A stretch of DNA of 64,000 nucleotides from Gammaproteobacteria bacterium. Lineage in GTDB: Bacteria > Pseudomonadota > Gammaproteobacteria > JAADGQ01. The notes under the pieces are model-generated. The model saw only the letters and a list, made by a program, of their open reading frames with translations, was not told the DNA's origin and ran no database searches. Shown here in pieces: positions 19,827-55,234 of the stretch (position 1 is its first letter; each line of letters opens with the position of its first letter). The stretch covers positions 6,219 to 70,218 of the forward strand of contig JAADGQ010000131.1 of NCBI GenBank assembly GCA_013152295.1, written 5' to 3'. A program made the translations under genes and the position numbers.

Positions 19827-19848
19827 CGCGCCGAGGCCCTGTTAACAA

Positions 19849-21444: not shown

Positions 21445-21686
21445 ACAATCCTTGGTTAACGTTAGCAGACTGCTAGTCTATCTCGCCCCGACGCCAGGAA
21501 ACGCAACGCCAAGCACATTCACAGAACCACAGACTAAAAAGAGAGAGGTAACCACTGCTCGCAGCATGAAAACAGATTGAGGGGGATCAGCGTACACTTG
21601 CTGAGTATCGGGCGGGAAACAGCCAGGAACAGCTGTCGTAAATGGAGGAAGCGCGAAACCAGAAGCTTCGCGCTAAATGTCGAACA

Positions 21687-23057: not shown

Positions 23058-23112
23058 CGGATCACCTCTACTTCTTCCACTGATAAAAGGGGTGTTTTAC
23101 ATACACTCCATC

Positions 23113-25224: not shown

Positions 25225-25259
25225 TGTAGAGCCCGCCTCGTTGCAATGCCGTGTATGAA

Positions 25260-38839: not shown

Positions 38840-38869
38840 GCTAGGTGAGATGGCCTGTGCGATCGCCTG

Positions 38870-39832
38870 TCAGCGAGCCGGAAATATCCATTTAAAATCG
38901 TCCATATGGTCAGAAATATCGAGACTGAGGTGTGCGGCAGTGCGCCTATTTAGAGACATATTGAGCTCTTTTACCGGCTCAATAACCAAAGGTCGTCGCC
39001 CTTTGATCTTGTTTTGGCTGAGCGCCATTTCGGCCAAGCTGACACCTAGTTTGAAGTAATCTGGCGACGCGGAAAACAGCACCCCTTTTTTCGCATGACT
39101 TGGCACACTGGAAAAAAGGATCAATTTTTTCTGCCAGGCTGCCTTCAACAACATCGAGATAATGGACTTGCCGTTGATGGCGTCGCGCATGATCCATATC
39201 GCGTCTGTATCGGATTGTATACGGTCAAGAATATCGCCATAGACTACAGCCGCTTCGCGCAAGCTGCTCACCGGGTACGCACGCAATTTAAGCCCAAATT
39301 TAGCGCTGGCTTGCTCACTTAGACGGTGTAACCACGAAAAACGGTTTGGGTTGTAGAGCACAACCACTCGCTTCACTTTCGGTGCGATCTTTTTCAGCTG
39401 GGCGAATAGACGCTCTACATCGGCCGTCAGGCTGATGCCAGACACACCCTCGCCATCAGTAATCAAATGGGCACCACTGATATAGGGTATATCGCTTTTC
39501 AAACGTTTGGTGGCATTAACGCCACGCTGCCCCAAAGCGATAATAGAGTCGGCCGGGTTCTCTTTCAGCCACTTGGCGAGGTCCTCCAGCTCGTACTTGC
39601 GGGGCAACTTGTATTGCCCGCTAACCATCACCCGTTGCTCTATGCCCAAGATAATGGAGGAGAAAACCTTTTGGTAAGGACCTCGGGCCTCAGGGTAGAT
39701 GACGACGACACTGGATGTAGCTGCGTATATCGGCAGAGAGGGGAAGGAGAGAAGCAGGGCAAAAAGCAATGGGATGAGCCGCCCCCAATGCATTTGGCTG
39801 CCACCGTGTCGTCGTTCAATCGAGCGATCCAT
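38870..39832 (-). CDS. COG2984-type periplasmic substrate-binding protein (ABC-type SBP without transporter genes)
   Basis: Signal peptide (likely start MHWGRLIPLLFALLL at 39793); PBP fold. Immediately upstream of and co-oriented with the hybrid kinase. Confidence 0.7.
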   Translation of the reverse strand: MDRSIERRHGGSQMHWGRLIPLLFALLLSFPSLPIYAATSSVVVIYPEARGPYQKVFSSIILGIEQRVMVSGQYKLPRKYELEDLAKWLKENPADSIIALGQRGVNATKRLKSDIPYISGAHLITDGEGVSGISLTADVERLFAQLKKIAPKVKRVVVLYNPNRFSWLHRLSEQASAKFGLKLRAYPVSSLREAAVVYGDILDRIQSDTDAIWIMRDAINGKSIISMLLKAAWQKKLILFSSVPSHAKKGVLFSASPDYFKLGVSLAEMALSQNKIKGRRPLVIEPVKELNMSLNRRTAAHLSLDISDHMDDFKWIFPAR

Positions 39833-40107
39833 GCGTTTTTCCGTTTCCCGTACCTGACTTTTTTGTTTTTACTTTTTATTATAAAAGTAGCAACAGCTGA
39901 GTGGATGCGGAGCATCAAGCCTCGACTGTATAACGGCGGCTATAGTCGTTGTTTTTAGCTTCCGTTGGAAACGCCTATCTGCGTGGATGTAGCCGCATAG
40001 GCTATACCGCTAATTGTTGCCCGGTTTGTGGTCTATATGCAATGATCCTGTTGAGCTGCGTACACACGACCAAATTGAGCGGTGCAAAAAAGTGCCTTTA
40101 AGAGACC

Positions 40108-40148
40108 TTTGCACGAAAACTATTTTTCGTGCAAATTTTCGTGCAAAG
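40108..40148. promoter_or_regulatory. operator-like array: 12-4-12 palindrome TTTGCACGAAAA-ctat-TTTTCGTGCAAA followed directly by a third direct copy TTTTCGTGCAAA
   Basis: Seen directly in the divergent promoter region between the SBP-kinase operon and the orphan CheY gene. A degenerate fourth copy (GGTGCAAAAAAGTGCC) lies at 40081-40096. Confidence 0.4.
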
Positions 40149-40245
40149 ATCTCTTAAACTTATTTTGCCAAGCCGACGATAACCGGTCTGTTGCGAAGTA
40201 CGGTAGAGATCTATTCGACCGCTTAATCATGGAACCACATCTTTT

Positions 40246-40614
40246 ATGGCAACAGAGATATTGCTTATCGAGGATCACCCGGATAATCGGGATATGCTGG
40301 CACGCCGTTTAACGCGGATTGGCTACACTGTTCACACCGCTGTCAATGGCGAAGAGGGTGTTCAAGCTGTATATGATCGACCACCTGAGTTGATCCTAAT
40401 GGACGTCAGCATGCCAATCATGGATGGTATCGAAGCAACGCGCCACATCAAATCAGACCCTGACTACCAACATATTCCTATCATTGGTATCAGCGGCCAT
40501 ACTTTGAGTGAAGAGAGGGAGAGGATGTTTGCTGCCGGCGCAAATGATTACACGCACAAGCCGATCGATTTTAACAAGCTGTCAATCTGTATTAAGCAGT
40601 GGCTTAGCCACTGA
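40246..40614 (+). CDS. single-domain CheY-like response regulator
   Basis: ILLIEDHPDNRDML, phospho-acceptor in LILMDVSMP, conserved T/S and K positions; no output domain. Confidence 0.85.
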   Translation: MATEILLIEDHPDNRDMLARRLTRIGYTVHTAVNGEEGVQAVYDRPPELILMDVSMPIMDGIEATRHIKSDPDYQHIPIIGISGHTLSEERERMFAAGANDYTHKPIDFNKLSICIKQWLSH

Positions 40615-40666
40615 GTGAGTATTGATGAGAAGCGCGAATTAATTTAATGGTTGAGTGGACGAAAAA

Positions 40667-40696
40667 GCGCCCTGATTCGTTAACGAATCAGGGCGC
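40667..40696 (-). terminator. strong intrinsic terminator (13-bp perfect stem GCGCCCTGATTCG-ttaa-CGAATCAGGGCGC, T-tract on the minus strand)
   Basis: Convergent intergenic region between the cheY-like gene and the roadblock gene. Confidence 0.6.
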
Positions 40697-40731
40697 ATGA
40701 ACAACGGTTACTGTATTTTGTCAGCGCTTAA

Positions 40732-41103
40732 TCAGTGCAGTAGTTCTTCAGTTACATCAATGGCGGCGCGTTGAATCTCATTCGAGACCAACCCCAGTTC
40801 GGCGTTGGCTTTGATAATGGTGGCAACGACAGCATCGTCGCCCGCGTGGGTGATCATCATGCAACCAGCCTCCCCGCTTACAACAATCTGCTTCATGGTA
40901 CCACCGCATATCAGTTCGATCATGGCCTGATCGCCTAGCGATACGATAGCGGCGCTCACCGCTCCCAAGCGGTCTTCATCCATATCGGTCGGCAGTTGAG
41001 AAGCCATGACCAAGCCGTCGATCGACATAATTGCCGATGCTTCAATATCCGGTGACTCTTTGTTCAGATCAACAAGAATAGATTGCAGAGCTGTGTGATT
41101 CAT
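40732..41103 (-). CDS. Roadblock/LC7 (MglB-like) domain protein
   Basis: 123 aa with the alpha-beta-alpha roadblock pattern (AIMSIDGLVMAS...GAVSAAIVSLG...VVSGEAGCMMITHAG). Confidence 0.75.
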   Translation of the reverse strand: MNHTALQSILVDLNKESPDIEASAIMSIDGLVMASQLPTDMDEDRLGAVSAAIVSLGDQAMIELICGGTMKQIVVSGEAGCMMITHAGDDAVVATIIKANAELGLVSNEIQRAAIDVTEELLH

Positions 41104-41176
41104 CGAAAACCCCCGTGGTTTTTTTAATTCTCCGAAAGTTAACCTGGCAACCTACATCATCGAATAAAAAGCGATG

Positions 41177-41752
41177 TTAGGCCGCCTCAATTTTGCGGGC
41201 GATGTCAGCATACACCGTCTTGAGCATATTCCTCATCAGTGGTGGCGTCCACCCCGTCGCCTGTAGCAGCCCTTTTTTACGCCCCTCATCAACCAGCGTC
41301 GTCGTCAACGCAACGGTTGCATCGACAACATGCTGAAAAGCAAGGAAAAGCCTGACCCCTTCGTCTGCTCCTAGTTCACTCACCATCGCCTGTAGAAAAA
41401 ACTCACGAGAACGGCTGGCCATGGTCAGCATGTAACGATTGGGCACTTCTCGACGAATGTGCGCCAAACCGATCAGGTACTGTTTTTTCCAGAATTCGTC
41501 ATCGTCATGCCCCTCAACAAGGCTTAACACCCACTTGCGCAACGTATCCTCAACCGCTGGCCGCTCCCCTTCGCGGAAAATTTCACGGGGGCCCTCGTTG
41601 TCGTAAATCGTATCGTAGAAGTGCTTAACAAAGCCCTCCAAATTACTTGTAAAGAAGTCCGTATGCTTTTTGAGAAGGGCAAAGTCACCTTCCGAAACGG
41701 AAATGACTGCATGGACTTCCCTCAGATAGAGTCCAAAATTTTGTTCACTCAT
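41177..41752 (-). CDS. protoglobin-domain protein (single-domain sensor globin)
   Basis: Globin-coupled-sensor-type globin fold with putative proximal His in LIGLAHIRREVPNRYM. Start taken as MSEQNFG (41752); the ORF extends to 41881. Confidence 0.65.
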   Translation of the reverse strand: MSEQNFGLYLREVHAVISVSEGDFALLKKHTDFFTSNLEGFVKHFYDTIYDNEGPREIFREGERPAVEDTLRKWVLSLVEGHDDDEFWKKQYLIGLAHIRREVPNRYMLTMASRSREFFLQAMVSELGADEGVRLFLAFQHVVDATVALTTTLVDEGRKKGLLQATGWTPPLMRNMLKTVYADIARKIEAA

Positions 41753-41984
41753 TTGCGACAATCTCCCGCGTGCGCTTGCCTGGGGCCATCTAAAAAGATG
41801 GCTCAGAGCGTGTGTCAAATATCCATGATGGCGACCATTCCGTTCAGCGTGTACAGCTGCGAGCTGTCCCACGGCGGCCAATAACGATGGGGCTTAACAA
41901 GAGCAGCTAACGCTCCACAGCACGGTGGAACATAACTACATGCATAGTGTTGTTATCGTCCGCTGGATCGTTAACTTTAGCGAC

Positions 41985-42887
41985 TCAGCGGGCGGGCAGA
42001 CCACTGGCCAGGTCAGGATAATCAGGTTGTACGCCCAAACCATGCACCATAAGCCGGTTATCGAGGCGCTTTGATTCGGCAAGGTAGGAGAGCATGGCGG
42101 GACTCAGCTGTTGCTGTGCTTGCAATAGAGTGATCGCAGGTGGGCGAGGTAGTCCCAGCAGATCGGCAACCCGATTGAAGTAGTCGGTCATCGTCGTGGG
42201 GTTGCCGTCACTGGCGTTATAGATGGGTGCTGGCACCTCTTTATGAGCTGCGGCAAAACAGACACGGGCAAGATCGTCGGCATGGATGCGATTGCTAAAT
42301 GGTGCCTCTGCTTCGCGCAGTACCGGCACCTCTTGGCGGATGCGTGCTATCGGCAAGCGCTGCGGACCATAGATACCTGCAACACGCAGAACAACCGAAG
42401 AGATAGCGCGCTGTTGGCTCCAGCTGCGCAGGGTGATCTCGCCATCGAGTCGCCGCCAAGCGCGTTCGCTCTGCGGGTTGGTCGGCGCTGTTTCGTCAAT
42501 CCAGGCACCGTGGCAATTGCCATAAACACCGCTAGTACTGATCAACACAATGCGCTGCGGTTGATGATCGTCGTGGATGGCACCAAGAAACGCGGCTATG
42601 CGCGAATCCGTGGCTCCCTGCGCAGGTGGTGGTGCAAAGTAGTAGATCAATGCATTGTGCGTTGGCAGCTGAATCAACGACCGCGCCACATCAAGGTCGC
42701 ACTGCAATAACTCAACGCCTTGCGCTGCTAACCGGGTGGCCGCCACACCGCTGCGCGCAACCCCTATTACCTGCTGCGCACCGCCAAGCCGTTCAAGCCG
42801 CGCAACACGGCAACCGATATCGCCACATCCAACGATGAGCACTCTTGGCACTATTTTGAGAAGCCGTACGAGGACTCTTGTAGCCAC
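41985..42887 (-). CDS. NAD(P)-binding epimerase/dehydratase-family (extended SDR) protein
   Basis: Rossmann VLIVGCGDIGCRVA N-terminus. True start probably the GTG at ~42851, abutting the GGDEF-EAL stop. Confidence 0.65.
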   Translation of the reverse strand: MATRVLVRLLKIVPRVLIVGCGDIGCRVARLERLGGAQQVIGVARSGVAATRLAAQGVELLQCDLDVARSLIQLPTHNALIYYFAPPPAQGATDSRIAAFLGAIHDDHQPQRIVLISTSGVYGNCHGAWIDETAPTNPQSERAWRRLDGEITLRSWSQQRAISSVVLRVAGIYGPQRLPIARIRQEVPVLREAEAPFSNRIHADDLARVCFAAAHKEVPAPIYNASDGNPTTMTDYFNRVADLLGLPRPPAITLLQAQQQLSPAMLSYLAESKRLDNRLMVHGLGVQPDYPDLASGLPAR

Positions 42888-45331
42888 TGCTTAAAGTGGT
42901 CGGCGGGTATTGGCGGGCTGAAAAAGTGACCCTGCCCATAGTCACAACCCAGTTTTATCAATAGCTCGCAAATAGCCGCGTTTTCAACACCTTCGGCGAT
43001 GACTTTAATACCCATGTTATGGGCCAGCTCGATCGTTGAGCGGACGATCGTGGCATCAGCTTCATCTTCGTTGACACGCAACACAAACGACTTATCGATT
43101 TTAAGCTCGTCCACTGGCAGCTGTTTCAGGTAAGCAAGTGAGGAGTAACCCGTACCAAAGTCATCGATCGAAAACTGTATGCCCATGGCATTCAGTTCAT
43201 TGATCACCTCCAGCGCACGTACTGGCTCCTCCATGATGGCGGTTTCAGTGATCTCCATACGCAGCAACTCAGGAATGGCATCGGCCCTTTTCAATATCCC
43301 TTTGATCCGTGACGGGAACTGCTCCTCCAGTAAATTTTGTGGGGAGAGATTCACCGCCACATTCAGTTCGATACCTGCCTGCTGACACATTCTGCACTGC
43401 CTGACGGCAGCCTCTACAACCCACAGGGTGAGCGGACGAATCAGCCCGGTCTGCTCCGCGAGGGGAATAAACTCATCCGGTGGTAGCAAACCGTGCTTGG
43501 GGTGCTGCCAGCGCACCAACGCCTCAACACCAATCACTTTGTGCTGAATCAGATCGATTTTAGGCTGGTAATACAAAATCAGTTGCTCTGCATGAATTGC
43601 TGTGCGCAGCTCGCCCGCCAGAGCGAAATTGCGCGCACTGTGTCTATCCTGATCCGGGTTGTAGACGACGACATCGCGGTGGCCACGCTTGGCGGCATAC
43701 ATCGCCACATCTGCGTGGCGGGTCAGCGTAATGCTGTCGTTGCCGTGGTCGGGGTAGAGTGCAATGCCGACGCTGGCGGACAAGTGCAATGACTGGCCAT
43801 CCATTTTGTCGATAACGAAGGGGGCCTCTATAGCGGTGAGCAGTTCATGTGCGACTTGCGAGGCATGTTCGCCGCTACTGCCCGGCAGATAGACGGCGTA
43901 CTTGTCGCCACCGAGACGGGCGATGACACCGGGTGGGCTATCCACGCGCTGTTTTAAACGGCGGGCAACTTGCAGCAATACGTTGTCACCGCACTGATGA
44001 CCCAGCGTATTGTTGATCTCTTTGAAGCGATCAAGGTCCAACAACAGCAGGGCAAACTGCAGCTGTTGCTCAGCCCCGTCGGCGATGGCTTGTTGAAGTG
44101 CGTGATCGATGTAGGCGTGGTTGGGCAGCCCGGTTTGAGCATCGTGAGTGGATTGATACTCCAGTGCAGCAGTCTGCGCTCTTCGTGTGGTGATGTTGTG
44201 AAGAATGCCGACAAAGTAGTGGCGCCTGTCCAGCGTCATTTTGCTTAACGTCACCTCCACCGGGAACAATGAGCCATCTTTGCGCAGGCCCAGCAGTTCG
44301 CGGCCAATACCCATCATTCTTGGCACTTTTGATGAGATGCAGCGGCTCATATAAGCACCATGCAGATCACTAAGATGGGTGGGCATCAACATGGTAACGT
44401 TCTGGCCAACCAATGCTTGGGAAGGGTAACCGAACATCTCTTCAGTGGCCGGATTGACCGTCACCATCTCGCCCTCTTCATTGGTCGTAATCACAGCATC
44501 GGCGAGGTTGTCAACAATCGCCCTGATACGTGCTTCGGAGGCGATAAGATCGCGTTGCATAGAGTTAAAAACTGTGGCCACCTGACCCAGCTCATCCTTT
44601 CTCTCCTCAGCCAACAGCGCGGTGCGATCACCCTGACCAACCCTTGTAATAGCATCGCGCAGGATACCGATCGGGCGCAACACATTGACGCGTAGTGCCA
44701 GCCACATGGCGATACCGAGAAACAGTGACAGCAACACAAGAATCATCCACATACGTGATTGCATATAGGCAATATGCTTGGAGACCTCTTTTATAGAGGA
44801 TGTCAGCATCAACACACCACGCAATGGTGCGGAGTCATAGCCGTGACATGCCAAACACTCTGCATCCGCTCTGATCGGCATCAGCACGGTAATCTGCTCG
44901 CTAGTGCCTGTTTCGATAATTGTATCGCCGCTGAGAGCGGCGTTGAAGGCCGTCATTGGCACTGAAGGTGGCGTACTTGACAGTACTGCTGTTCTCTGAA
45001 AACGTGGGGTGTGCAGATATGAGTTGACGGCGTTGACCGTCTCAAGGTCGGTGAACGCGGGCTGGCCGTTACGGCGCAGAATCTCGATACGCACAATGCC
45101 TTCGGCATCTTTCATGCGATCCAACCACTCTCGCGCCAACGTCCCCTGACCGTTGAGCATCAATGTTTTCAGGCTGGCTAGCAGGGTTTTAGCGTGAGAT
45201 TCAGCGCGCCTGACCTCCTCTTTATAAACGGTGTCAGCGAGCTGTTTCTGAATCCACAAGCCGCTGAAGATCAGCGGTACTGCGAGCACCAGGGAGATAA
45301 TTAAAGCGAGGCGGGTGCTCAGGCTGTTCAT
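42851..45331 (-). CDS. membrane-anchored signalling protein with periplasmic domain, PAS, degenerate GGDEF and intact EAL domains
   Basis: Two TM helices flanking a ~170-aa periplasmic region. PAS (IVDNLADAVITTNEEG). GGDEF A-site reads RLGGDKY (Glu to Lys, Phe to Tyr; no RxxD I-site). EAL domain has EALVRW, DDFGTGYSSL and KIDKSFV motifs. Confidence 0.9.
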   Translation of the reverse strand: MNSLSTRLALIISLVLAVPLIFSGLWIQKQLADTVYKEEVRRAESHAKTLLASLKTLMLNGQGTLAREWLDRMKDAEGIVRIEILRRNGQPAFTDLETVNAVNSYLHTPRFQRTAVLSSTPPSVPMTAFNAALSGDTIIETGTSEQITVLMPIRADAECLACHGYDSAPLRGVLMLTSSIKEVSKHIAYMQSRMWMILVLLSLFLGIAMWLALRVNVLRPIGILRDAITRVGQGDRTALLAEERKDELGQVATVFNSMQRDLIASEARIRAIVDNLADAVITTNEEGEMVTVNPATEEMFGYPSQALVGQNVTMLMPTHLSDLHGAYMSRCISSKVPRMMGIGRELLGLRKDGSLFPVEVTLSKMTLDRRHYFVGILHNITTRRAQTAALEYQSTHDAQTGLPNHAYIDHALQQAIADGAEQQLQFALLLLDLDRFKEINNTLGHQCGDNVLLQVARRLKQRVDSPPGVIARLGGDKYAVYLPGSSGEHASQVAHELLTAIEAPFVIDKMDGQSLHLSASVGIALYPDHGNDSITLTRHADVAMYAAKRGHRDVVVYNPDQDRHSARNFALAGELRTAIHAEQLILYYQPKIDLIQHKVIGVEALVRWQHPKHGLLPPDEFIPLAEQTGLIRPLTLWVVEAAVRQCRMCQQAGIELNVAVNLSPQNLLEEQFPSRIKGILKRADAIPELLRMEITETAIMEEPVRALEVINELNAMGIQFSIDDFGTGYSSLAYLKQLPVDELKIDKSFVLRVNEDEADATIVRSTIELAHNMGIKVIAEGVENAAICELLIKLGCDYGQGHFFSPPIPADHFKQWLQESSYGFSK

Positions 45332-45411: not shown

Positions 45412-46599
45412 TCACTGGATGTTGCTGATGTGAGCGACACCTCCGAAGCTACCGATCCAGACGCTGCCGTCTGCAGCATCGCTCATTGAGAAGACGTTAT
45501 CGGCATAGAGACCATCGGCACGAGTCAGCACAGAGAAGCCGCTACCCTGTTTATTAAAATAGGCCAAGCCGTTACTGGTGCCGATCCAGATCCGACCATT
45601 GGGCGCACGGTGCAACATAAAAATGTGGTTCGCAGGGAGGCCATCTACGGTGGTGTAGTTGCGCCAGCTTTTACCATCGAAACGTGCCAAACCGCCACCC
45701 CAAGTGCCGCACCAGACAACGCCTTGGCTATCTACTGCAAGCGAGATGATGTAGTTGGGATTATAGGCGACTTTGACATCAGACAGACCCTGCTCAGCTT
45801 TCTGTCGGGCGTGATGTGAGGAGGCTTGCGCCGGATCGTTGGTAAATTGAATGGTCTCTTTTACCACGTCGTAGGGTGCTCCCAACCCGTCATCATGTTT
45901 CCAGTTAACCCAGCTACCATCCCTATACCGCGCCAGCCCATCTTCGGTAGCGAACCAGATATCACCGTTCAAACCCTCTTCAAGGCCGTAAACCCATGGG
46001 TTCGGCAGCCCGCCATCGGTGTTTTCAACGGTAAATGATTGCCAGCTATCTGGGTCTTCGAGCACGCCGCCTTTAATACGATTAACCCCCGACCAGGTTG
46101 CAATCCAGATATCGCCGTTGGAAACTTTCTTGACATCATAGACAAACTGATCGGCAAGTCCTTCGGGAATATTATAGTTCTTCCATTTATCGGCACTGAT
46201 GTCGTAAACCGACAGGCCGCCACCGTAGGTGCCAAGGTAGATCCGCTCATCAATTCTGCTAACGTGAAAAATACCGTTAGAGAGAATACCGCTGACTTTG
46301 TTGTCGAAAACCTTGTAGCTGTCATCTCGGGTATCGTAGCGAATGACGCCTCCGGAAGTACCGATCCAGACGTAGTGACCCTCGGCATGTATCGATTTAA
46401 CGTTGCTGTTGCCCACCTCAAATTGAGCAAAGTGGTTGTTGCTCGGCATCTGCTGTTTGTGTTGTGCCGTCGAAGCGTTGGCTGTACCGCTGCTGGTCGT
46501 TGTATTGGTTTCGCTCGGTGAACAGGCGATGAGGGCAGTAGCCATTGCTAGCAGCCCCGTCGCGATGATGACGCGTTTATTGATCCAACCCTGACTCAT
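45412..46599 (-). CDS. secreted two-component-regulator-propeller (Reg_prop) beta-propeller lipoprotein
   Basis: Signal/lipobox (LLAMATALIACS). At least six WxGT/WIGT repeats (VWIGTSGG, IWIATWSG, IWFATEDG, VWCGTWGG, IWIGTSNG, VWIGSFGG). Confidence 0.75.
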   Translation of the reverse strand: MSQGWINKRVIIATGLLAMATALIACSPSETNTTTSSGTANASTAQHKQQMPSNNHFAQFEVGNSNVKSIHAEGHYVWIGTSGGVIRYDTRDDSYKVFDNKVSGILSNGIFHVSRIDERIYLGTYGGGLSVYDISADKWKNYNIPEGLADQFVYDVKKVSNGDIWIATWSGVNRIKGGVLEDPDSWQSFTVENTDGGLPNPWVYGLEEGLNGDIWFATEDGLARYRDGSWVNWKHDDGLGAPYDVVKETIQFTNDPAQASSHHARQKAEQGLSDVKVAYNPNYIISLAVDSQGVVWCGTWGGGLARFDGKSWRNYTTVDGLPANHIFMLHRAPNGRIWIGTSNGLAYFNKQGSGFSVLTRADGLYADNVFSMSDAADGSVWIGSFGGVAHISNIQ

Positions 46600-47789
46600 T
46601 GCTTGTTATCCGCTTGTTGAGGTGTATTGCCAATGCGCACAACGCCGCTACGTGTTCCAGCCCAAATCTCACCGTCTGCGGTTGTAGCTACTGAGTAGAC
46701 GCTCTCACCAAGCAGCCCGTTGCTTCGGTCAAGGGTAATCCAAGATGTTCCATCGAAGCGCGACAATCCTTTGTTAGTGCCAAACCAAAGCGCACCCTGA
46801 CGATCTTCCGCGATGCTGAAGACAATATCGCCAGCAAGGCCATCCTCAGAGGAGAAACTTTGCCACTGTTTACCGTCGAAACGGCTGACGCCACCACCCC
46901 AGGTACCCGCCCAGATTGAGCCATCATCAGCCTTGTGGTGTATCGAAAAGACATAAGAGGGGTTGTAAGTAGGGCGCCCTTCAGTGAGCACGCTCAGGTT
47001 GTGTCGTGAGCGAGTGCCGAGCCCGGTGTTGATGCTGAGCGGCAGACTGCCCCGGTTATCGGCACCAAGGCCATCGGCGTGGGTCCACGCTTGCCACTGC
47101 ATGCCGTCAAACATTGAGACGCCACCCTCTGTGGCAAACCAGACGCGCTCTTGTGCATCCACAGCGATACCGTAGACCCACTCGTTAACGAGTTCTTCAA
47201 CGTAGTTGGTTAATTCGCCGCTGCTGCCATCCAGGCGGCTGGCGCCTGCCCAGGTGCCAACCCACAGCGTATTATCAGATTGCTGTGCGAAAGCATAAAC
47301 CCAGTAGTCGGCCAGTCCGTGCATGGGAAAGTAAGTTTTCCACTTGTCATCGCGATAGCGCGACATGCCGCCGCCGTTGGTGCCAAACCAAGTTGCGCCG
47401 CTATTATCGGTGAGAATACTGAACACGTATTCGTTGGCCAGGCCGTGTTCTCGGGTGAAGGTGTTGAGGACGTTTTGATCTTTTAAGTCGACCTCGATGA
47501 CGCCGACGGATGAACCAACCCACAACCGCTTGCGCTTTTCATCCACGTTGAGTGCGCGCACATAGACCTCTTTGCCCACATCAAAAGCGTCGAGAACGCG
47601 AAAATTGTGCGCTTTGATCTGTTTGTTAGCGCTGCTCTCCGCCGGATTTTTAACTTGAGCAACGCTTGTTGGTTGCGTGGTGGTTGCTTGCTGCTGCGCC
47701 GTGGCAGGAGGTTCGCTATTCTGTTCCGAGCAGGATGCCAACATCAAAGAGATACACAGCAACGCAACAGAAAGAACAGCTGCACGCAT
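46596..47789 (-). CDS. secreted Reg_prop beta-propeller protein (paralogue of the gene above)
   Basis: Signal peptide with lipobox (LMLASCSE); repeats LWVGSSVG, TWFGTNGG, LWVGTWAG, VWFATEGG, IWAGTWGG, LWFGTNKG, IWAGTRSG. ATGA overlap with the downstream propeller gene. Confidence 0.75.
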   Translation of the reverse strand: MRAAVLSVALLCISLMLASCSEQNSEPPATAQQQATTTQPTSVAQVKNPAESSANKQIKAHNFRVLDAFDVGKEVYVRALNVDEKRKRLWVGSSVGVIEVDLKDQNVLNTFTREHGLANEYVFSILTDNSGATWFGTNGGGMSRYRDDKWKTYFPMHGLADYWVYAFAQQSDNTLWVGTWAGASRLDGSSGELTNYVEELVNEWVYGIAVDAQERVWFATEGGVSMFDGMQWQAWTHADGLGADNRGSLPLSINTGLGTRSRHNLSVLTEGRPTYNPSYVFSIHHKADDGSIWAGTWGGGVSRFDGKQWQSFSSEDGLAGDIVFSIAEDRQGALWFGTNKGLSRFDGTSWITLDRSNGLLGESVYSVATTADGEIWAGTRSGVVRIGNTPQQADNKQ

Positions 47790-48103
47790 CAGCGCAACGT
47801 CCTCAGATAAGCAATCACGTCAAGCATCTCCGTCTCATTCATACGCCCCATGAACGCAGGCATCATCCCCTTTCCCGCTTTCAGCACAGAGAGCAGCCCA
47901 ATATCGGACTGCAGCAACCCTTCACCACGCGTGAAATCGGGCACTCCGGGAATGGCACCACGGCCACCGCTGCCATGACAGCCTGTGCAGTAGCGATTGT
48001 ATTTTTTGGCTCCCTCACCAGGGTTGCCAGCATGTGCGACACCGCTCAGCAGAAAAGCGAGCAAGACGACCATCAAATTTATTTTGGCTGTGTGGTTTTT
48101 CAT
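47789..48103 (-). CDS. periplasmic class I c-type cytochrome (c553/c6-like)
   Basis: 104 aa from MKNHTAKINLMVVLL (signal peptide) with a single CTGCH haem site and distal Met (GKGMMPAF). Its stop overlaps the propeller start by 1 nt. The listed ORF extends upstream to 48253. Confidence 0.75.
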   Translation of the reverse strand: MKNHTAKINLMVVLLAFLLSGVAHAGNPGEGAKKYNRYCTGCHGSGGRGAIPGVPDFTRGEGLLQSDIGLLSVLKAGKGMMPAFMGRMNETEMLDVIAYLRTLR

Positions 48104-48170: not shown

Positions 48171-48707
48171 CTACTGCGCACTGATCGGCAATGTTCCATC
48201 ATAAGCAGCTTCGAGCATCTCAATCGTTGCTGGGTCGTGCCACTGTCGCGCACCGATAATCTGGCGCAGCAAAACCCCGTCTCGGGAGATCAAAAACGTG
48301 CTTGGGTATGCGCTGATAGCCAACTGCTGCTGAGCAATCGCCATTGTCTTATCGATAAAGCTCATCAGCCTGACCCCTCTATCGATCAGGTATTCACGCA
48401 CCGGCAGCTCATCATCGTCTACCGACATGAGCAGCACCGCAAAACGCTCTCTGTCCAACGCACCCATCAGTTTTTCAAGGCTGGGTAACTCACTGCGACA
48501 TGGCGCGCACCAAGTCGCCCAGACGTTGAGCATGACGACTTTGCCACGATACTGCTCAAGCGGGGTCTGGCTTCCATCTAGTCCCGTCAACATGATCGCG
48601 GGAAAACGCTTCCCCTCAATGAGTCCCTTTTCAGGGGGCGGCGGCTCGCTGCATGCTGAGGCAGCCAATAACGTGATTAACAACAGCAGAAGCCTGCAGC
48701 GTCTCAT
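48171..48707 (-). CDS. TlpA/ResA-family periplasmic thiol:disulfide oxidoreductase
   Basis: Signal peptide and WATWCAPCRSE thioredoxin-fold active site. Confidence 0.8.
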   Translation of the reverse strand: MRRCRLLLLLITLLAASACSEPPPPEKGLIEGKRFPAIMLTGLDGSQTPLEQYRGKVVMLNVWATWCAPCRSELPSLEKLMGALDRERFAVLLMSVDDDELPVREYLIDRGVRLMSFIDKTMAIAQQQLAISAYPSTFLISRDGVLLRQIIGARQWHDPATIEMLEAAYDGTLPISAQ

Positions 48708-48748: not shown

Positions 48749-50035
48749 TTACGGCACTATCTGATCGATAACGATGGTCACGTCGTCGCTACCAACCGGC
48801 ACATTTGCCGCGATGCCTTGCAGATCACCACTGGCCGATGATGCATCGCCGCTACGCGAGACGCGAGCGACAAGAATAACGTTTTGGTGGTCTGACAACT
48901 TCAGTGACGGCATCAACGCAGTCGTGTCATCCAGCGTAAAAGTTACGGGCAGCTCTTTGAGCTGTTTGCGCACAATAGCGACCGGCATGCGTGCATTTTC
49001 ATCGGTGCGAGCAAAGATGAACACAGTGTCATCGGGCTCTGCTTTGCCCAGCAAATCGGGATTCAGCTCAACACGGCCCGAGATCTGAGTCGTGCGATCT
49101 GCTTCGCCTAGTGTGTCTTGAGTGACATCGCCGGACTGAGAGGCATCACCAAACGTTGGCGGCGCAGCATTACCCGTAGCCAGGTGACGTGCCTGGGCAA
49201 TGTTACCTTCGATAATCCCCGCGTCTTCCGAGCCCGGCGTCAGTAGCGTCAGCAACTTCTCCCAGTAAGGAATGGACGCGAGAAAGTTACCCCGGTCAAA
49301 TTCGTAGGTGGCGGATAACCACAACCCCTTGCCGTTGTTGGGGTCGAGCTCCAGAGCACGACGTATCAACGTGATCGGCCTGCCTTCGAGGCTTTCGTTG
49401 TTGCTGCTCATAGCCAGTGCATCGGCATAATCGAGGAGCAAATTGGGATCATTGGGACCGACCAGTTTAACGACGTTGCCATACGCGTTGGCTGCCTCCG
49501 CAAAGCGGCGCAGGGCAAAATAGGAGCGGCCGAGCATGTTCCAACCATCCACGTCATCGGGATTCTCGTGCATGCGCTGCTCCAGAGCCGCCACCATCGC
49601 CTCGATCTGACCCGGCAAATTATGGTCCGCTGTGTTCGGCGCAGCTATCTCGGCAGGCTGCTCCGCAAACGCCTGCGGATTGCCCAACGTCTGATAAAGC
49701 GTAATGGCAAGTGCAGGAACCGCCACCGCGACCAGCACAGCGGTGATCAAAGAGGGCTTTCTCTCGGTCTTTGTTTCGACAGCGGCGCTACTGTCACCGA
49801 TATCCTCAAGCATCCGTTTTTGCAGGTCCGCACGCGCCTGATTGAGACGAATATCACTGAGCGTGCCCTGCTCCAGGTCTCTATCGAGGTCGGCAAACTG
49901 CTCTTTGTAGATGGATACGTTAACCGCAGTGCGATCGACTTCAGCCTTTGCAGAGCCACGCCGCAGCATGGGGGGGAGCAGAAAAAACAGGGCAACTGCA
50001 ATAAATCCAGCAGCCACCATCCAAAAAACCATCAT
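48749..50035 (-). CDS. ccmI: c-type cytochrome biogenesis protein CcmI (CycH)
   Basis: N-terminal TM hairpin (FWMVAAGFIAVALFFLLPPML) and C-terminal TPR region. Last gene of the ccm cluster. Confidence 0.8.
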   Translation of the reverse strand: MMVFWMVAAGFIAVALFFLLPPMLRRGSAKAEVDRTAVNVSIYKEQFADLDRDLEQGTLSDIRLNQARADLQKRMLEDIGDSSAAVETKTERKPSLITAVLVAVAVPALAITLYQTLGNPQAFAEQPAEIAAPNTADHNLPGQIEAMVAALEQRMHENPDDVDGWNMLGRSYFALRRFAEAANAYGNVVKLVGPNDPNLLLDYADALAMSSNNESLEGRPITLIRRALELDPNNGKGLWLSATYEFDRGNFLASIPYWEKLLTLLTPGSEDAGIIEGNIAQARHLATGNAAPPTFGDASQSGDVTQDTLGEADRTTQISGRVELNPDLLGKAEPDDTVFIFARTDENARMPVAIVRKQLKELPVTFTLDDTTALMPSLKLSDHQNVILVARVSRSGDASSASGDLQGIAANVPVGSDDVTIVIDQIVP

Positions 50036-50508
50036 GCCTTATCTCTCCCGATATCCTCATTTAGCAGCTGATCAACGCGTTCACGCTCCTCCTTGGTGAG
50101 CACGGTTTCGGTGCCGCGTGCCCGGCGCCGTTTGAGCACCACAAACAGAACCGTCGCGCCGATCAACAACATGCCCAGCGGCCCCAGCCACAACAGCATC
50201 GTGGTGCTATTGAAGGGAGGACGGTAGCGAACAAAATCACCGTAACGTTCGACCAAATAGTCGACAATCTGCTGGTCACTCCATCCAGATTTCATTTTGT
50301 CGCGCACTTCATTGCGCATATCAATAGCAAGCTCAGCGTGGGAAGCTGCCACAGACTGATTCTGACAAACGAGACAGCGCAGCTCTTTGCTGAGTGCCAT
50401 CACCCGTTTCTCCAGCACCGGATCTTCGGCCATGGGGGTCGCTTCATTTGCCACGACCGCGCCAGACAGCAACCCTGCAATCAATATGAGAGGTATCAGT
50501 ATTTTCAT
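50032..50508 (-). CDS. ccmH: cytochrome c-type biogenesis protein CcmH
   Basis: LRCLVCQNQSV (LRCxxC) motif. Confidence 0.85.
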   Translation of the reverse strand: MKILIPLILIAGLLSGAVVANEATPMAEDPVLEKRVMALSKELRCLVCQNQSVAASHAELAIDMRNEVRDKMKSGWSDQQIVDYLVERYGDFVRYRPPFNSTTMLLWLGPLGMLLIGATVLFVVLKRRRARGTETVLTKEERERVDQLLNEDIGRDKA

Positions 50509-50527
50509 TCCATTAACTCTATTGGTG

Positions 50528-51061
50528 TTAGCTCTCTAGCTTCAGCTTTTTAATCAGGGGGATGATGGTTTCGTCCAGTGCTTTTCGCGTTACCGGACCA
50601 ATCTGCTTGTAGCGGATTGTGCCATTCTGGTCGATGAGGTAGGTCTCTGGAACGCCGTATACGCCGTAATCGAAACCAACTTTGCCTTCCACATCCTGAG
50701 CACTCAACACGTAGGGGTTGCCAAGCTGACGTAGCCAGCGGATGGCATCCGTCCGTTTATCTTTGTAGTTGAGACCATAGATCGGAACAATGTTCTGTTT
50801 GGCAAGCGCGATCAGCAGCGGGTGCTCGGCACGGCACGAGACGCACCACGATGCCCACACATTGAGCAGCCACACTTTGCCAGCCATATCGCTACGCGAG
50901 AATGTTTTTTCTGGCTGGTGCAACTGGCTGAGTTGAAACGCAGGCGCAGCTTTGTCAATCAACGGTGAAGGAACGTTGCGTGGATTGAGATCCAGCCCAA
51001 TCAGCAAAAACACGGCGATACCGATAAAAACGGCGAGCGGGGCAATAAAACGAATCATCAA
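50528..51061 (-). CDS. ccmG: thiol:disulfide interchange protein DsbE/CcmG
   Basis: WASWCVSCRAEHP active site and GVYGVPETYLID motif. Confidence 0.9.
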   Translation of the reverse strand: MMIRFIAPLAVFIGIAVFLLIGLDLNPRNVPSPLIDKAAPAFQLSQLHQPEKTFSRSDMAGKVWLLNVWASWCVSCRAEHPLLIALAKQNIVPIYGLNYKDKRTDAIRWLRQLGNPYVLSAQDVEGKVGFDYGVYGVPETYLIDQNGTIRYKQIGPVTRKALDETIIPLIKKLKLES

Positions 51062-53097
51062 CTACTAGCCTCTGTGGCGATGTTATTGTCAACAACCGCT
51101 CTACCATCGGCAATGGATGCCATACGCGCCTGTTGTTTGCGTGCGGCGATGCGGTAACGGCGGTCACTCATGGCCAGAAAACCGCCAATAGCGAGAAACC
51201 CACAGCCGCCCCACAACCAACCGATGAATGGTTTGTAGTAGACACGAACGCTCCAAGCGCCGCCGCTAAGTGGATCACCGAGCGATATGTAGAGATCGCG
51301 GGTAAAGCCATAATCGATAGCGGCCTCGGTCATAGGCATTGACTGTACGTTGTAAATACGTTTTTCCGGCTCCAGCACCATTAGATCTTTGCCGTCTTTG
51401 ATGACTTGAATCATGCCGCGGTTGGCGCGGTAATTTGGACCAGTGGTCGACATAACGCCATCAAAGCGAAAGGTGTAACCAGACATCGTCAAGGTGTCGC
51501 CCACCTCCATACGCACATCCTGCTCAACCTCATAGCCTTTAACCAAAGTGATGCCTGCGACGATGACTGCGAGTCCGAAATGAGCTACCTGCATACCCAG
51601 GTAGCCGTTGGGCAAGCCCAGTAACGCAGTGATAGCGCTTTTGCCGCGCTTTATCTCCTGAGCAATCCTGCTCCCGACCCCCTGCAAAATCGACAGCATC
51701 AGCCAAGCAGCCAAAAACAATCCGACACTCACCATGAGTGATATTTCACCCATCAAGAATGGCAGCGCAACAGCTAATACGATGCTGATAATGAACGACG
51801 TGCGCAGCTGTTTGATCAGCTCGCCTGCATTACCCTGCTTCCAGCGTACATAGGGGCCAATCGACATCAACAGCAGCAACGGAATCATCGGCAGCAGAAA
51901 CATGCTGTTGAAGTAGGGCTCACCGACAGATATTTTCGCAGGCTCGATAATGTTCAGTGCTACGAATGCATCGACGACCAGCGGGAACAGTGTGCCGAGC
52001 AGCACCACACCGAGTGCGACCACCAACAACACGTTATTGATGAGCAGCATGGTTTCTCGTGAGAAGGCGTTGAAACCACCGCCGAGCCCAACGCGCGGCG
52101 CACGCCATGCATAGAGCAACAGCGCGCCACCGATGACCACGCCAAGAAAGATCAGAATGAACAGGCCACGCTCGGGATCGGTGGCAAAGGCATGTACCGA
52201 TGTTAAAACACCGGAACGAACCAGAAAGGTGCCCAGCAAGCTCAGTGAAAAGGCGAGGATGGCGAGTAGTACCGTCCAACTGCGGAAGCCGCCCCGTTTT
52301 TCGGTGACAGCAAGCGAGTGGATCAGTGCAGTGCCAGCCAACCACGGCATGAATGATGCGTTTTCAACGGGGTCCCAAAACCACCAGCCGCCCCAACCAA
52401 GTTCGTAATAGGCCCACCAGCTCCCCAGACCAATGCCAATGGTGAGGAACACCCAGGCCACAGTTGTCCACGGTCGTGACCAGCGCGCCCAGGCGGCATC
52501 AAGTTTGCCGCCGATCAAGGCCGCGATGGCAAAGGCAAATGCAACGGAAAAACCGACGTAGCCCATATAGAGCATCGGTGGATGGATGACCAGCCCGAAA
52601 TCTTGCAGCAGCGGATTCAGGTCGCGACCATCGACAGCAGCCGGAAACAGCCGCTCAAACGGGTTGGAGGTAAACAGGATAAACAGCAAAAACCCAACAC
52701 AGATCAAACCCATAACACCCAGCACCCGGGCAGCCATTGCCGGGGAGAGGTGGCGACTGAAGAGCGCAACTGCTGTAGCCCAGCCTGAGAGCATCAAAAT
52801 CCACAACAGCAGAGAGCCCTCATGACCACCCCACACGGCGGCAACGCGGTACTGGATTGGCAGTGCCGAGTTGGAGTGTAACGCCACGTAGAGCACCGAG
52901 AAGTCATTCTGCACAAAGGCGTAGACGAGACAGCCGAAGGCGGTGGCGACAAACAGAAACAGCGCATACGCCGCCGGGCGAGCTACAGCAACCCACGCGG
53001 GAATGCGCAGAACCGTGCCAGCAATAGGCAGTATGCCGAGCAACAGTGCAACGCTGAGCGCGGTGATGAGGGCAAAATGCCCAATCTCTGGAATCAT
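51058..53097 (-). CDS. ccmF: cytochrome c haem lyase subunit CcmF
   Basis: 679 aa polytopic membrane protein with the WWxxD tryptophan-rich motif (WGGWWFWDPVEN). Confidence 0.9.
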   Translation of the reverse strand: MIPEIGHFALITALSVALLLGILPIAGTVLRIPAWVAVARPAAYALFLFVATAFGCLVYAFVQNDFSVLYVALHSNSALPIQYRVAAVWGGHEGSLLLWILMLSGWATAVALFSRHLSPAMAARVLGVMGLICVGFLLFILFTSNPFERLFPAAVDGRDLNPLLQDFGLVIHPPMLYMGYVGFSVAFAFAIAALIGGKLDAAWARWSRPWTTVAWVFLTIGIGLGSWWAYYELGWGGWWFWDPVENASFMPWLAGTALIHSLAVTEKRGGFRSWTVLLAILAFSLSLLGTFLVRSGVLTSVHAFATDPERGLFILIFLGVVIGGALLLYAWRAPRVGLGGGFNAFSRETMLLINNVLLVVALGVVLLGTLFPLVVDAFVALNIIEPAKISVGEPYFNSMFLLPMIPLLLLMSIGPYVRWKQGNAGELIKQLRTSFIISIVLAVALPFLMGEISLMVSVGLFLAAWLMLSILQGVGSRIAQEIKRGKSAITALLGLPNGYLGMQVAHFGLAVIVAGITLVKGYEVEQDVRMEVGDTLTMSGYTFRFDGVMSTTGPNYRANRGMIQVIKDGKDLMVLEPEKRIYNVQSMPMTEAAIDYGFTRDLYISLGDPLSGGAWSVRVYYKPFIGWLWGGCGFLAIGGFLAMSDRRYRIAARKQQARMASIADGRAVVDNNIATEASS

Positions 53098-53142
53098 GGT
53101 CAGCGTGTCCTTTTATATTGTCGCGCTTAACTTGTCGCTTAT

Positions 53143-53592
53143 TTACAGGGCGGGTTGCGCCACTGATGAGTTTGCCTGCTCAGCTTTCTCGAGCGCTGCC
53201 GCAACCTCGGGAGGCATGTAAGTCTCATCATGCTTGGCCAGCACCTCTTCGGCGTGGAACACGCCATCACTGCGCATGCGCCCCTGCGCGACCACCCCCT
53301 GCCCTTCCTGAAACAGGTCCGGGAGAATGCCGGTGTAGCTGACCGAGACCGTTTCGGCGTTGTCGGTGACATCAAAGCGCACCGTCAGACCCTCGCGTTT
53401 AACAGTCCCCTTTTTAACCAATCCACCCAAACGCATGGTGTGATCAACTGGTGCCTTATTGGCAACGATGTCGCTAGGGGAGAAAAAGTAGGCAAGGTTG
53501 CCCTCAAGTGCTTTGAGTACCAGTGTGGCCGCAATGGCGATAGCCACTAATCCACCGACAATAAAGGCCAGGCGTTTGTGTCTAGGTTTCAT
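53143..53592 (-). CDS. ccmE: cytochrome c-type biogenesis haem chaperone CcmE
   Basis: N-terminal TM and the conserved LAKHDETYMPPE region carrying the haem-binding His. Confidence 0.9.
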   Translation of the reverse strand: MKPRHKRLAFIVGGLVAIAIAATLVLKALEGNLAYFFSPSDIVANKAPVDHTMRLGGLVKKGTVKREGLTVRFDVTDNAETVSVSYTGILPDLFQEGQGVVAQGRMRSDGVFHAEEVLAKHDETYMPPEVAAALEKAEQANSSVAQPAL

Positions 53593-53761
53593 GACGTTTA
53601 GCTTCCTCAGCTTTAATCCGCATAATACGACTCAGCCGCTGCAGAATAGTTCGGCGACGCTGTTTTACCATCACAATTTCAACAATGATGAACAGCGCAC
53701 TGACACCGAATGAGCCCCAGACGTAGAAGGCGTGCCCACCCATCGCAAAAAAATCCGCCAT
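53582..53761 (-). CDS. ccmD: haem exporter protein CcmD (59 aa, absent from the ORF track)
   Basis: Manual translation gives MADFFAMGGHAFYVWGSFGVSALFIIVEIVMVKQRRRTILQRLSRIMRIKAEEAKRHET. Single TM with conserved YVW...G. 11-nt overlap with ccmE, 2-nt gap to ccmC. Confidence 0.7.
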   Translation of the reverse strand: MADFFAMGGHAFYVWGSFGVSALFIIVEIVMVKQRRRTILQRLSRIMRIKAEEAKRHET

Positions 53762-53763
53762 GG

Positions 53764-54522: not shown

Positions 54523-54554
54523 AATTGGCGATACAACCCGTTATCGTAATCTTT

Positions 54555-55229: not shown

Positions 55230-55234
55230 GGTTA

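Follow-up and report, generated by a model that had tools for sequence, protein, structure and literature searches.

We describe a trio of genes in a 64,000-nucleotide stretch of DNA from a gammaproteobacterium (GenBank assembly GCA_013152295.1, contig JAADGQ010000131.1, positions 6,219 to 70,218; hereafter the window, numbered from its first letter). The trio encodes a small periplasmic cytochrome c and two paralogous Reg_prop beta-propeller proteins, and it sits between a cytochrome c maturation operon and a gene for a membrane protein with GGDEF and EAL domains, the domains of cyclic di-GMP (c-di-GMP) turnover. We discuss the sequence features of the three proteins, their conservation, and the genes that accompany them in related loci. 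We then consider whether the trio may serve as an accessory periplasmic sensing module, a reading that we favor tentatively, and weigh it against roles in electron transfer, cytochrome assembly, and the sensing of ligands other than redox state.

A cytochrome and two propellers at the end of a maturation operon

The genes of the trio and its immediate neighbors are all on the minus strand. The open reading frame (ORF) listing and Pfam place first a small periplasmic class I cytochrome c of 104 amino acids (47789-48103), with a ribosome-binding-site-like AGGAGGG ahead of its ATG. Propeller 1, a predicted Reg_prop lipoprotein of 397 amino acids identified by Pfam and by an AlphaFold2 model, follows at 46596-47789, and propeller 2, its 395-amino acid paralog by Pfam and pairwise comparison, at 45412-46599. 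The genes overlap at both junctions. Between the cytochrome and propeller 1 the overlap is a single nucleotide: in the sequence CTGATG, the TGA stop and the ATG start share one A (TGATG, 47787-47791). Between the two propellers it is 4 nucleotides, ATGA (46596-46599). The overlap of cytochrome and propeller 1 suggests translational coupling, which would yield matched amounts of the two proteins.

Directly upstream, across a gap of 67 nucleotides, is a tlpA-like gene (48171-48707) for a TlpA/ResA-like thiol:disulfide oxidoreductase lipoprotein, recognized by Pfam and by its CAPC motif. Beyond it lies the system I cytochrome c maturation operon, ccmA-B-C-(D)-E-F-G-H-I (48749-55852), with ccmC at 53764-54522 and ccmI at 48749-50035 in the ORF listing. 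Downstream, 80 nucleotides separate propeller 2 from the gene for an 826-amino acid HAMP-PAS-GGDEF-EAL membrane protein (42851-45331; ORF listing and Pfam). A scan of this gap in the window found no terminator-like or promoter-like site; the absence is weak evidence, because the scan counts were not above shuffled expectation.

The cytochrome

By its sequence, the cytochrome reads as a class I c-type protein. It has a predicted Sec signal peptide (MKNHTAKINLMVVLLAFLLSGVAHA, then G, with cleavage read at GVAHA/G), a single CXXCH haem motif (CTGCH, residues 39-43; 47975-47989), a distal methionine, and a mature domain of about 80 amino acids. The axial methionine region is conserved, as MP within GKGMMP. 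Pfam assigns the protein to Cytochrome_CBB3/Cytochrom_C (PF13442, PF00034) with an expectation value (E) of 5e-11, and its closest solved domains are the C-terminal domains of CcoP, KustA0088, and c6. An earlier note made from the window's letters, here called the original prediction, had named it c553-like; the CcoP C-terminal and c6-type class I domains are the nearer relatives. Identity to orthologs is 31-46%, with a median of 37%.

The propellers: fold, conserved residues, and anchors

Pfam finds Reg_prop repeats (PF07494) in both propellers (E 5.5e-27 for propeller 1 and 6.3e-21 for propeller 2), and no kinase, Y_Y_Y, or other output domain in either. The two are 31% identical to each other (E 5e-59), as expected of paralogs. 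The AlphaFold2 model of propeller 1 (predicted local distance difference test score, pLDDT, 84.4; predicted TM-score, pTM, 0.80) has seven four-stranded blades behind a disordered tether. By Foldseek and sequence profile, its closest solved structures are the Bacteroides hybrid two-component system (HTCS) sensors BT4663, BT3049, and BT4673, at 17-22% identity; behind these come the metal-dependent Vgb lyase and generic WD40 propellers. The stand-alone propeller family is not represented among the NCBIfam models.

Conserved residues were taken from alignments of 27 and 53 orthologs, and the propeller-1 orthologs share a very large invariant set. Against the strand pattern of the model, it falls mostly in blades 2-5, in the loops ahead of each repeat's first strand (...GLANEY, FPMHGLADYW, ELVNEW, and WTH..GLGA.N) and the tight turns (GTN.GG, GTW.G, TEGG, and GTWGGG). 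We take the conserved loops to lie on the top face of these blades, by analogy with other propellers and not from coordinates. A 40-residue insert between blades 4 and 5, with the sequences S.NTGLGTR.RH.L and YNP.Y, is also invariant. The only low-confidence parts of the folded model are residues 157-160 and 257-263, all of them invariant, a combination compatible with loops that would become ordered on a partner. Propeller 2 carries a related but distinct signature: W.H..G.GA, DP...S.HH..QK, and NPNY.

In the window, the N-terminal hydrophobic stretch of each propeller ends in a predicted lipobox, LASC followed by S in propeller 1 and LIAC followed by S in propeller 2, and a low-complexity tether of about 40 residues stands behind it. 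Among propeller-1 orthologs, a lipobox is present in gammaproteobacterial loci only, and loci of high guanine-plus-cytosine (GC) content have an ordinary AxA signal; read from these signals, propeller 1 is a predicted lipoprotein in the former and a predicted soluble periplasmic protein in the latter. Most propeller-2 orthologs begin with an uncleaved membrane helix that ends in GAYxLG and leads into a Pro/Ala linker with a conserved HPP; those of one arrangement (class D, below) additionally carry REGKVxVDPxxKFTH. Membrane tethering of propeller 2 is thus a conserved feature, since orthologs use a helix where the window uses a lipobox. The propeller 2 of the window is an exception among its orthologs in the type of anchor (46510-46599), which is swapped: the lipobox is present and the HPP missing.

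The original prediction described two paralogous secreted propellers that are free-standing and have no kinase, overlapped at both junctions and placed at the tail of the ccm-tlpA array before the GGDEF-EAL gene. The Pfam content, the 31% identity, the junctions as read in the sequence, and the gene order all agree with that description, and export signals are present in all three proteins of the trio.

Conservation of the trio

The context set comprised Ca. Tenderia electrophaga, one 4.7-Mb genome, 80 metagenomic contigs from an alignment-based scan, and one long Burkholderiales-type contig whose genes had been called independently; a single-protein scan of species genomes gave 7 loci, 2 of them useful. 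Loci were labelled by six-frame phmmer with reference proteins. Both propellers are present in 65 of the 85 related loci. The contig stops short of propeller 2 in another 13, and propeller 2 is unlabelled despite room for it in only 3, although for two of these (L031 and L037) a propeller-2-like ORF had been labelled in an earlier pass. In 32 of 43 loci, the stop codon of the cytochrome and the closest in-frame start of propeller 1 overlap by 1 or 4 nucleotides. Outside the window, the two propellers are mostly separated by about 0-60 nucleotides. As the order recurs in dozens of unrelated contigs and the overlap is so often kept, the arrangement is more than chance, and the triplet singled out by the original prediction is a recurring one. 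Six-frame labelling of the context loci revealed no genuine cytochrome-propeller or propeller-propeller fusion; apparent propeller "fusions" of 600-800 amino acids in high-GC loci proved to be wrong-frame or stop-to-stop artefacts.

The family is large. Among 90%-identity clusters, 3,539 relatives of propeller 1 were found at E<=0.001; the best 120 are 350-440 amino acids long, 52-67% identical, and mostly PF07494 only. Their source names are "regulator" or "ligand-binding sensor domain-containing protein." A betaproteobacterial propeller-1 query returned 2,556 clusters at E<=1e-50, with names that include Rubrivivax, Aquincola, Rhizobacter, and Immundisolibacter metagenome-assembled genomes. 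An exhaustive search of 50%-identity representatives gave 98,086 Reg_prop relatives, the top of which is dominated by long multi-repeat sensors that score on summed repeats. Only two orthologue-like single-stretch matches occur in the top 150 representatives, which marks the stand-alone family as tight, and the propeller-1 orthologs collapse to about one 50%-identity cluster. One ortholog (P0091), labelled "Kaarinaea lacus," a heterocytous cyanobacterium, lies on a 36-kb contig that is probably from a culture-associated bacterium, and its label is likely misattributed.

Four genomic arrangements

The loci can be classified into 4 arrangements. In class A, to which the window belongs, ccmA-I and tlpA are followed by the trio and by a haem-c GGDEF-EAL protein. 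Tenderia-like class A loci continue with an NHL protein, a pentahaem cytochrome, and two tri- or dihaem cytochromes. This tail is missing from the window, whose 64 kb hold no multihaem or NHL genes; the pair of trio and phosphodiesterase is still kept. In class B, ccm genes and the trio are followed by a Kelch-repeat protein of about 465 amino acids and often then by the same NHL/multihaem tail. The Kelch gene, found after propeller 2 in L014, L019, L024, L033, L044, L050, L061, L065, and L080, takes the place held elsewhere by the haem-c GGDEF-EAL gene; in L065 it stands between propeller 2 and GGDEF-EAL.

Class C starts with a UetJ-like cytochrome of 9-11 haems, ccsB, ccsA, a COX1-like protein, tlpA, and a short HisKA protein, and continues with a membrane histidine kinase with a HAMP domain, a sigma54 NtrC-type response regulator, the trio, a dihaem cytochrome, and polysaccharide export genes. 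In the class C locus L074, stop and start codons overlap from the response regulator to the cytochrome and from the cytochrome to propeller 1. After the dihaem cytochrome, L074 encodes a Wza-like export protein (Poly_export and SLBB) and a putative beta-barrel (13565-15547), with equivalents in L041, L058, and L059; the position of these export genes after the trio links the module to exopolysaccharide export. Class D consists of a histidine kinase, a sigma54 response regulator, a Sel1 protein, and the trio, preceded in some cases by multihaem, ccsBA, and TPR genes. In its high-GC subgroup, a gene for a cytoplasmic PAS-PAS-HisKA-HATPase-REC-REC-Hpt kinase begins about 4-30 nucleotides after propeller 2 and is followed by ApbE. 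The Sel1 gene is added in many loci; its product has a weak NCBIfam match and is ExoR-like.

Neighbors were counted upstream in loci with at least 3 kb of upstream sequence and downstream in those with at least 2.8 kb. The gene immediately upstream encodes a sigma54 response regulator in 21 of 41 loci, as part of a directly upstream pair with a histidine kinase; it is tlpA or ccmI in 19 and a cytochrome gene in 1. Directly downstream, among 43 loci, the gene is haem-c GGDEF-EAL in 11 (including Ca. Tenderia), Kelch in 9, a PAS-labelled hybrid kinase or GGDEF-EAL in 5, and another in 14; in the loci checked, Pfam identifies the PAS-labelled genes as cytoplasmic PAS hybrid kinases. Three unrelated types of transducer therefore occur next to the trio: the haem-c GGDEF-EAL protein, the membrane histidine kinase with its sigma54 response regulator, and the cytoplasmic hybrid kinase. 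Cytochrome maturation genes (ccm or ccsBA, and tlpA) and multihaem clusters are nearly always close by; tlpA is a frequent neighbor, and ccm genes lie upstream in many loci.

The N-terminal domains of the class C and class D kinases form a single family (hhalign P=100). A periplasmic docking domain shared by kinase and phosphodiesterase was ruled out: the domains are unrelated by BLASTP and give P<1 in hhalign. Putative haem-c PAS-like sensors recur near the trio, fused to GGDEF-EAL in the window and present as Tll0287-like proteins or other fusions elsewhere. Secreted Tll0287-like haem-c proteins (CMHCH) are found beside the kinase-regulator-Sel1-trio operon of high-GC class D loci; they stand alone in L091 (5205-5789), L075, L038, L037, and L053 and are in frame with GGDEF-EAL in L049 and L064. 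By sequence criteria they are predicted to make up a second kind of haem-c sensor that accompanies the trio.

A gene for an ApbE FMN-transferase (L091, 15064-16116) and one for a 123-amino acid secreted protein come after the hybrid kinase in L091, L040, L069, L075, and L077, that is, in every Burkholderiales-type locus with enough sequence. The ApbE flavinylation motif [ST]GA[ST] was absent from the Sel1 protein, cytochrome, both propellers, Tll0287-like protein, and kinase of L091. A sigma54 promoter before Sel1 or the cytochrome was rejected as a general feature, with strict TGGCA(C/T)-N5-TTGCT in only 3 loci. In these the motif falls inside the 3' end of the response regulator gene, about 190-230 nucleotides upstream of Sel1 (L064 near 1037, L067 near 232, and L076 near 386), and it may be a promoter or merely conserved coding sequence.

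The GGDEF-EAL neighbor

The 826-amino acid protein downstream of the trio is ordered as a first membrane helix, a putative periplasmic haem-c PAS-like domain, a second membrane helix, HAMP, PAS, GGDEF, and EAL; hydropathy places the helices at about residues 2-29 and 190-218. The periplasmic haem motif, CLACH (residues 159-163; 44843-44857), and a subsequent GYD are invariant among 13 orthologs. Two Pfam models, PF21563 (the Geobacter class 40H haem-c sensor) and PF11845 (Tll0287), both match sub-threshold on the haem motif. The AlphaFold2 model of the domain (pLDDT 79.7) has a PAS-like alpha/beta core, and its top Foldseek matches are GSU0935 and GSU0582 (3b42 and 3b47; E 3e-6 to 4e-4), with low TM-scores.

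The GGDEF motif is degenerate in the window, where the active-site sequence is RLGGDKY (GGDKY, 43898-43912); it is RLGGDEF in 12 of 12 orthologous loci. The EAL domain (Pfam E 1e-78) has the motifs of a phosphodiesterase, with VEALVR (43511-43528) and DDFGTGYS (43142-43165) both intact. The window protein is for these reasons probably a phosphodiesterase only, in a lineage that has probably lost cyclase activity. Where the original prediction spoke of c-di-GMP turnover, the intact EAL domain supports the breakdown half, and the degenerate GGDEF motif argues against synthesis. Sequence and model together make a haem-c-sensing phosphodiesterase the most likely identity of the protein, and the name given to its ortholog in a preprint on the Tenderiales, "haem containing c-di-GMP phosphodiesterase," agrees (10.1101/2022.05.06.490989).

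Other genes of the window

The region from ccm to the trio is flanked on one side by ftsK-lolA-rarA-serS. On the opposite side, downstream of the phosphodiesterase gene, is a second sensory gene cluster (36809-42887) with an NAD-epimerase, a protoglobin-domain protein (41177-41881), and a Roadblock/LC7 protein (40732-41103), and further on a plus-strand single-domain response regulator (40246-40614), an ABC_sub_bind periplasmic protein, and an sCache-HAMP hybrid kinase. A PEP-CTERM/exosortase-type exopolysaccharide locus occupies 16968-26648 on the minus strand; it encodes a 952-amino acid TPR protein, the exosortase EpsH with DUF3485, a sigma54 response regulator, a GAF histidine kinase, and a sugar transferase, and a UDP-glucose dehydrogenase gene lies at 27400-28728. 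It is possible that this locus is a downstream target of c-di-GMP or sigma54 signaling.

Relation to known systems

The propellers share with the Bacteroides HTCS sensors BT4663, BT3049, and BT4673 (4a2l/4a2m, 3v9f, and 3va6) the Reg_prop PF07494 repeats, the seven-bladed fold, and the occurrence of two propellers together. HTCS sensors combine a tandem double propeller with Y_Y_Y and are fused through a transmembrane segment to HisKA, HATPase, and REC domains and to an AraC HTH, features that the trio's propellers do not have. Unlike the HTCS sensors, the trio's propellers are separate polypeptides of about 395 amino acids, each with its own membrane tether in the window; they lack a Y_Y_Y domain and a transmembrane connection to a kinase, as well as any histidine kinase, REC, or AraC output. 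They are, moreover, only about 20% identical to the HTCS propellers, are co-encoded with a cytochrome c, and carry the family-specific invariant 40-residue insert. On these sequence features, the trio falls outside the HTCS sensors as so defined and classifies as a variant Reg_prop sensor, split into stand-alone propellers and linked to a cytochrome.

Ca. Tenderia electrophaga has orthologous genes in an identical order (ALP54648-ALP54655): the ccm and thioredoxin genes, the cytochrome, two proteins named "periplasmic ligand-binding sensor domain," and one named "haem containing c-di-GMP phosphodiesterase." The Tenderia cluster extends to an NHL protein, a pentahaem cytochrome, and two trihaem cytochromes, unlike that of the window; it keeps GGDEF where the window has GGDKY, and its propeller 2 has a membrane-helix anchor in place of the lipobox. 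The gene set has already been noticed in the literature as possible regulators, in the Tenderiales preprint of 2022, which lists the orthologous genes and says that they may have a part in regulation, with no further analysis (10.1101/2022.05.06.490989); it is otherwise uncharacterized. The trio genes are not mentioned in the text of the Tenderia metatranscriptome paper, and the Gallionellaceae pangenome paper covers the Uet clusters but not the trio genes. By description only, an iron-induced cluster of Sideroxydans (Slit_1321-1324: a cytochrome b, a hypothetical extracellular protein, and monohaem and dihaem cytochromes) may be related.

The GGDEF-EAL neighbor, as distinct from the trio, resembles the Geobacter chemoreceptors GSU0582 and GSU0935 and the Tll0287-like proteins in having a CXXCH near the C-terminal end of its periplasmic domain and a PAS-like fold in its model. 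It differs from the two chemoreceptors in its output, HAMP-PAS-GGDEF-EAL in place of a methyl-accepting chemotaxis protein, and the sequence similarity lies below Pfam thresholds.

Control of a membrane transducer by an adjacent periplasmic or lipid-anchored protein that has no output domain is a recurrent theme in bacteria. Examples include YfiB/YfiR with YfiN in c-di-GMP signaling, RcsF with IgaA, NlpE with CpxA, the Sel1 protein ExoR with ExoS, and TorT and TorC with TorS, in which the cytochrome TorC exerts feedback on its kinase. The trio resembles YfiBNR, RcsF-IgaA, NlpE-CpxA, ExoR-ExoS, and TorC/TorT-TorS in functional logic only, with no relation in sequence or fold; neither Pfam nor NCBIfam gives an OmpA or YfiR family match for any trio protein.

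What the trio may do

The reading that we lean toward, at somewhat less than even confidence, is that the trio may be an accessory, portable periplasmic sensing module without an output domain of its own. It is favored by the sequence and model evidence of the fold, by the pairing of paralogs, by the lack of an output domain, and by the placement near three transducer types and near haem-c PAS-like sensors. In such a module, the two propellers would pair, re-creating from two polypeptides the tandem double propeller of the HTCS sensors, and propeller 1 would offer its conserved top face and insert loops as the docking site for the cytochrome. The redox state of the cytochrome pool in the periplasm, or a ligand such as a metal, would alter the complex, and the signal would move laterally to the membrane transducer encoded beside the trio. 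In the window, this transducer would be the haem-c PAS-like/HAMP/PAS/EAL phosphodiesterase, so that the output would be c-di-GMP breakdown and, by extension, biofilm or exopolysaccharide behavior. In other lineages, the partner would be the histidine kinase and sigma54 regulator, with or without the cytoplasmic hybrid kinase. The original prediction proposed a split redox-responsive sensor feeding c-di-GMP turnover; its link to signaling is supported by the gene neighborhood, and its restriction to c-di-GMP is too narrow, as the outputs are of at least three types, c-di-GMP being one of them.

A bolder version, which we consider unlikely, is that the trio could be a new kind of periplasmic receptor, possibly envelope-spanning, that would feed extracellular-electron availability to interchangeable transducers. 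One propeller would be an outer-membrane lipoprotein, and its paralog would be held in the inner membrane by its helix and long HPP-containing linker. Extracellular electrons would be gauged through the cytochrome, or through a metal (Fe(II), for instance) bound on the invariant acidic/His top face, and their availability reported to the c-di-GMP phosphodiesterase, the sigma54 two-component system, or the hybrid kinase.

Several observations weigh against a sensing module. The case for it is built from gene order and fold. The neighborhood is free of regulators in about 10 of the 29 loci that can be evaluated on both sides, for example where ccmI, the trio, and Kelch follow one another. The maturation genes ccm or ccsBA and tlpA, together with multihaem, NHL, or dihaem cytochrome genes, are the most constant neighbors, and a role in electron transfer would account for them just as well. 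For a ligand sensor, propeller 1 shows unusual conservation, at 52-67% identity across Gamma- and Betaproteobacteria, and the cytochrome, at its median of 37%, is the least conserved member of the trio. The periplasmic domains of phosphodiesterase and kinase are unrelated, and there is consequently no common docking domain. The c-di-GMP version faces a difficulty of its own, as the GGDEF-EAL protein has a putative haem-c sensor domain of its own and would need no split sensor to sense redox.

These observations keep alive an electron-transfer or enzymatic module, which is possible though on the unlikely side. The propellers would then be a periplasmic redox enzyme or scaffold with the cytochrome as electron acceptor or donor, the acidic/His site of the top face would bind a substrate, for example a metal like Fe(II), and the kinases or c-di-GMP enzyme would regulate, or respond to, the cytochrome cluster. 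The trio lies amid genes for c-type cytochromes and their assembly (ccm, ccsBA, tlpA, the UetJ-like undecahaem, NHL and pentahaem, and tri- or dihaem genes), cytochrome maturation and multihaem genes being as constant neighbors as signaling genes are; a dihaem or c7-type cytochrome comes directly after propeller 2 in L003, L041, L059, L074, L088, and L090, and some loci have no regulator nearby. Propeller 1 looks conserved in the manner of an enzyme, with invariant E120, D161, E203, E221, H157, H237, H263, R260, and R262, its next-best fold and Pfam matches after the HTCS sensors are to the metal-dependent Vgb lyase propeller, and its tight coupling to the cytochrome is typical of an enzyme and its redox partner. 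However, Pfam and NCBIfam reveal no cofactor-binding motif or enzyme family, and the closest relatives of the propellers are sensors. The trio is also often sandwiched among signaling genes with overlapping or near-abutting junctions, which would be unusual for a purely catalytic cassette, and the window retains the phosphodiesterase beside the trio where the multihaem and NHL genes are missing.

Two other roles appear improbable to us. The trio could assist the maturation, quality control, or placement of periplasmic or outer-membrane multihaem cytochromes, either as a chaperone or scaffold or with a sentinel cytochrome whose apo/holo state would report maturation capacity. Beta-propeller lipoproteins that scaffold envelope machines are known, BamB being an example, and the trio is linked to two maturation systems and TlpA, as ccmA-I-tlpA-trio in classes A and B and as ccsB-ccsA-TPR-tlpA-(kinase-regulator)-trio in classes C and D. 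Yet many bacteria have ccm operons without the trio; even among the Tenderiales, most genomes examined have the ccm pathway and the cluster is mainly in groups 1-2 (10.1101/2022.05.06.490989). The linkage to ccm could be plain inherited synteny, and an assembly role leaves the adjacent kinases and c-di-GMP enzymes unexplained. No better a prospect is that the propeller pair senses a glycan or another envelope ligand, with the cytochrome a passenger co-transcribed at the tail of the ccm operon. Glycan sensing is the precedent for Reg_prop in BT4663, according to the titles of its Protein Data Bank entries, and polysaccharide genes occur both after the trio in class C and in the exopolysaccharide locus of the window; against it, the cytochrome keeps its place at propeller 1, usually with codons that overlap, also in loci that have no ccm genes nearby, such as L003, L074, L089, and L091.

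Implications

The module is abundant, strongly conserved, and genomically tied to clusters for multihaem cytochromes and cytochrome maturation and to three signaling outputs. To our knowledge, it is not established how bacteria that draw electrons from minerals or electrodes sense their donor and turn on attachment and the conduits of cytochromes. An envelope-spanning receptor, if such it is, would be the missing input that tells electroautotrophs and iron oxidizers when to attach and build multihaem conduits. Should the trio prove to be a redox enzyme instead, the oxidation of iron or at electrodes would gain a new pair of propeller and cytochrome. If the trio is an accessory sensor of redox state or of a ligand, the Reg_prop family would reach past fused kinases that sense glycans and include a split form linked to a cytochrome, and the trio would provide a gene target for the regulation of extracellular electron uptake and of c-di-GMP-controlled biofilm growth on solid donors.

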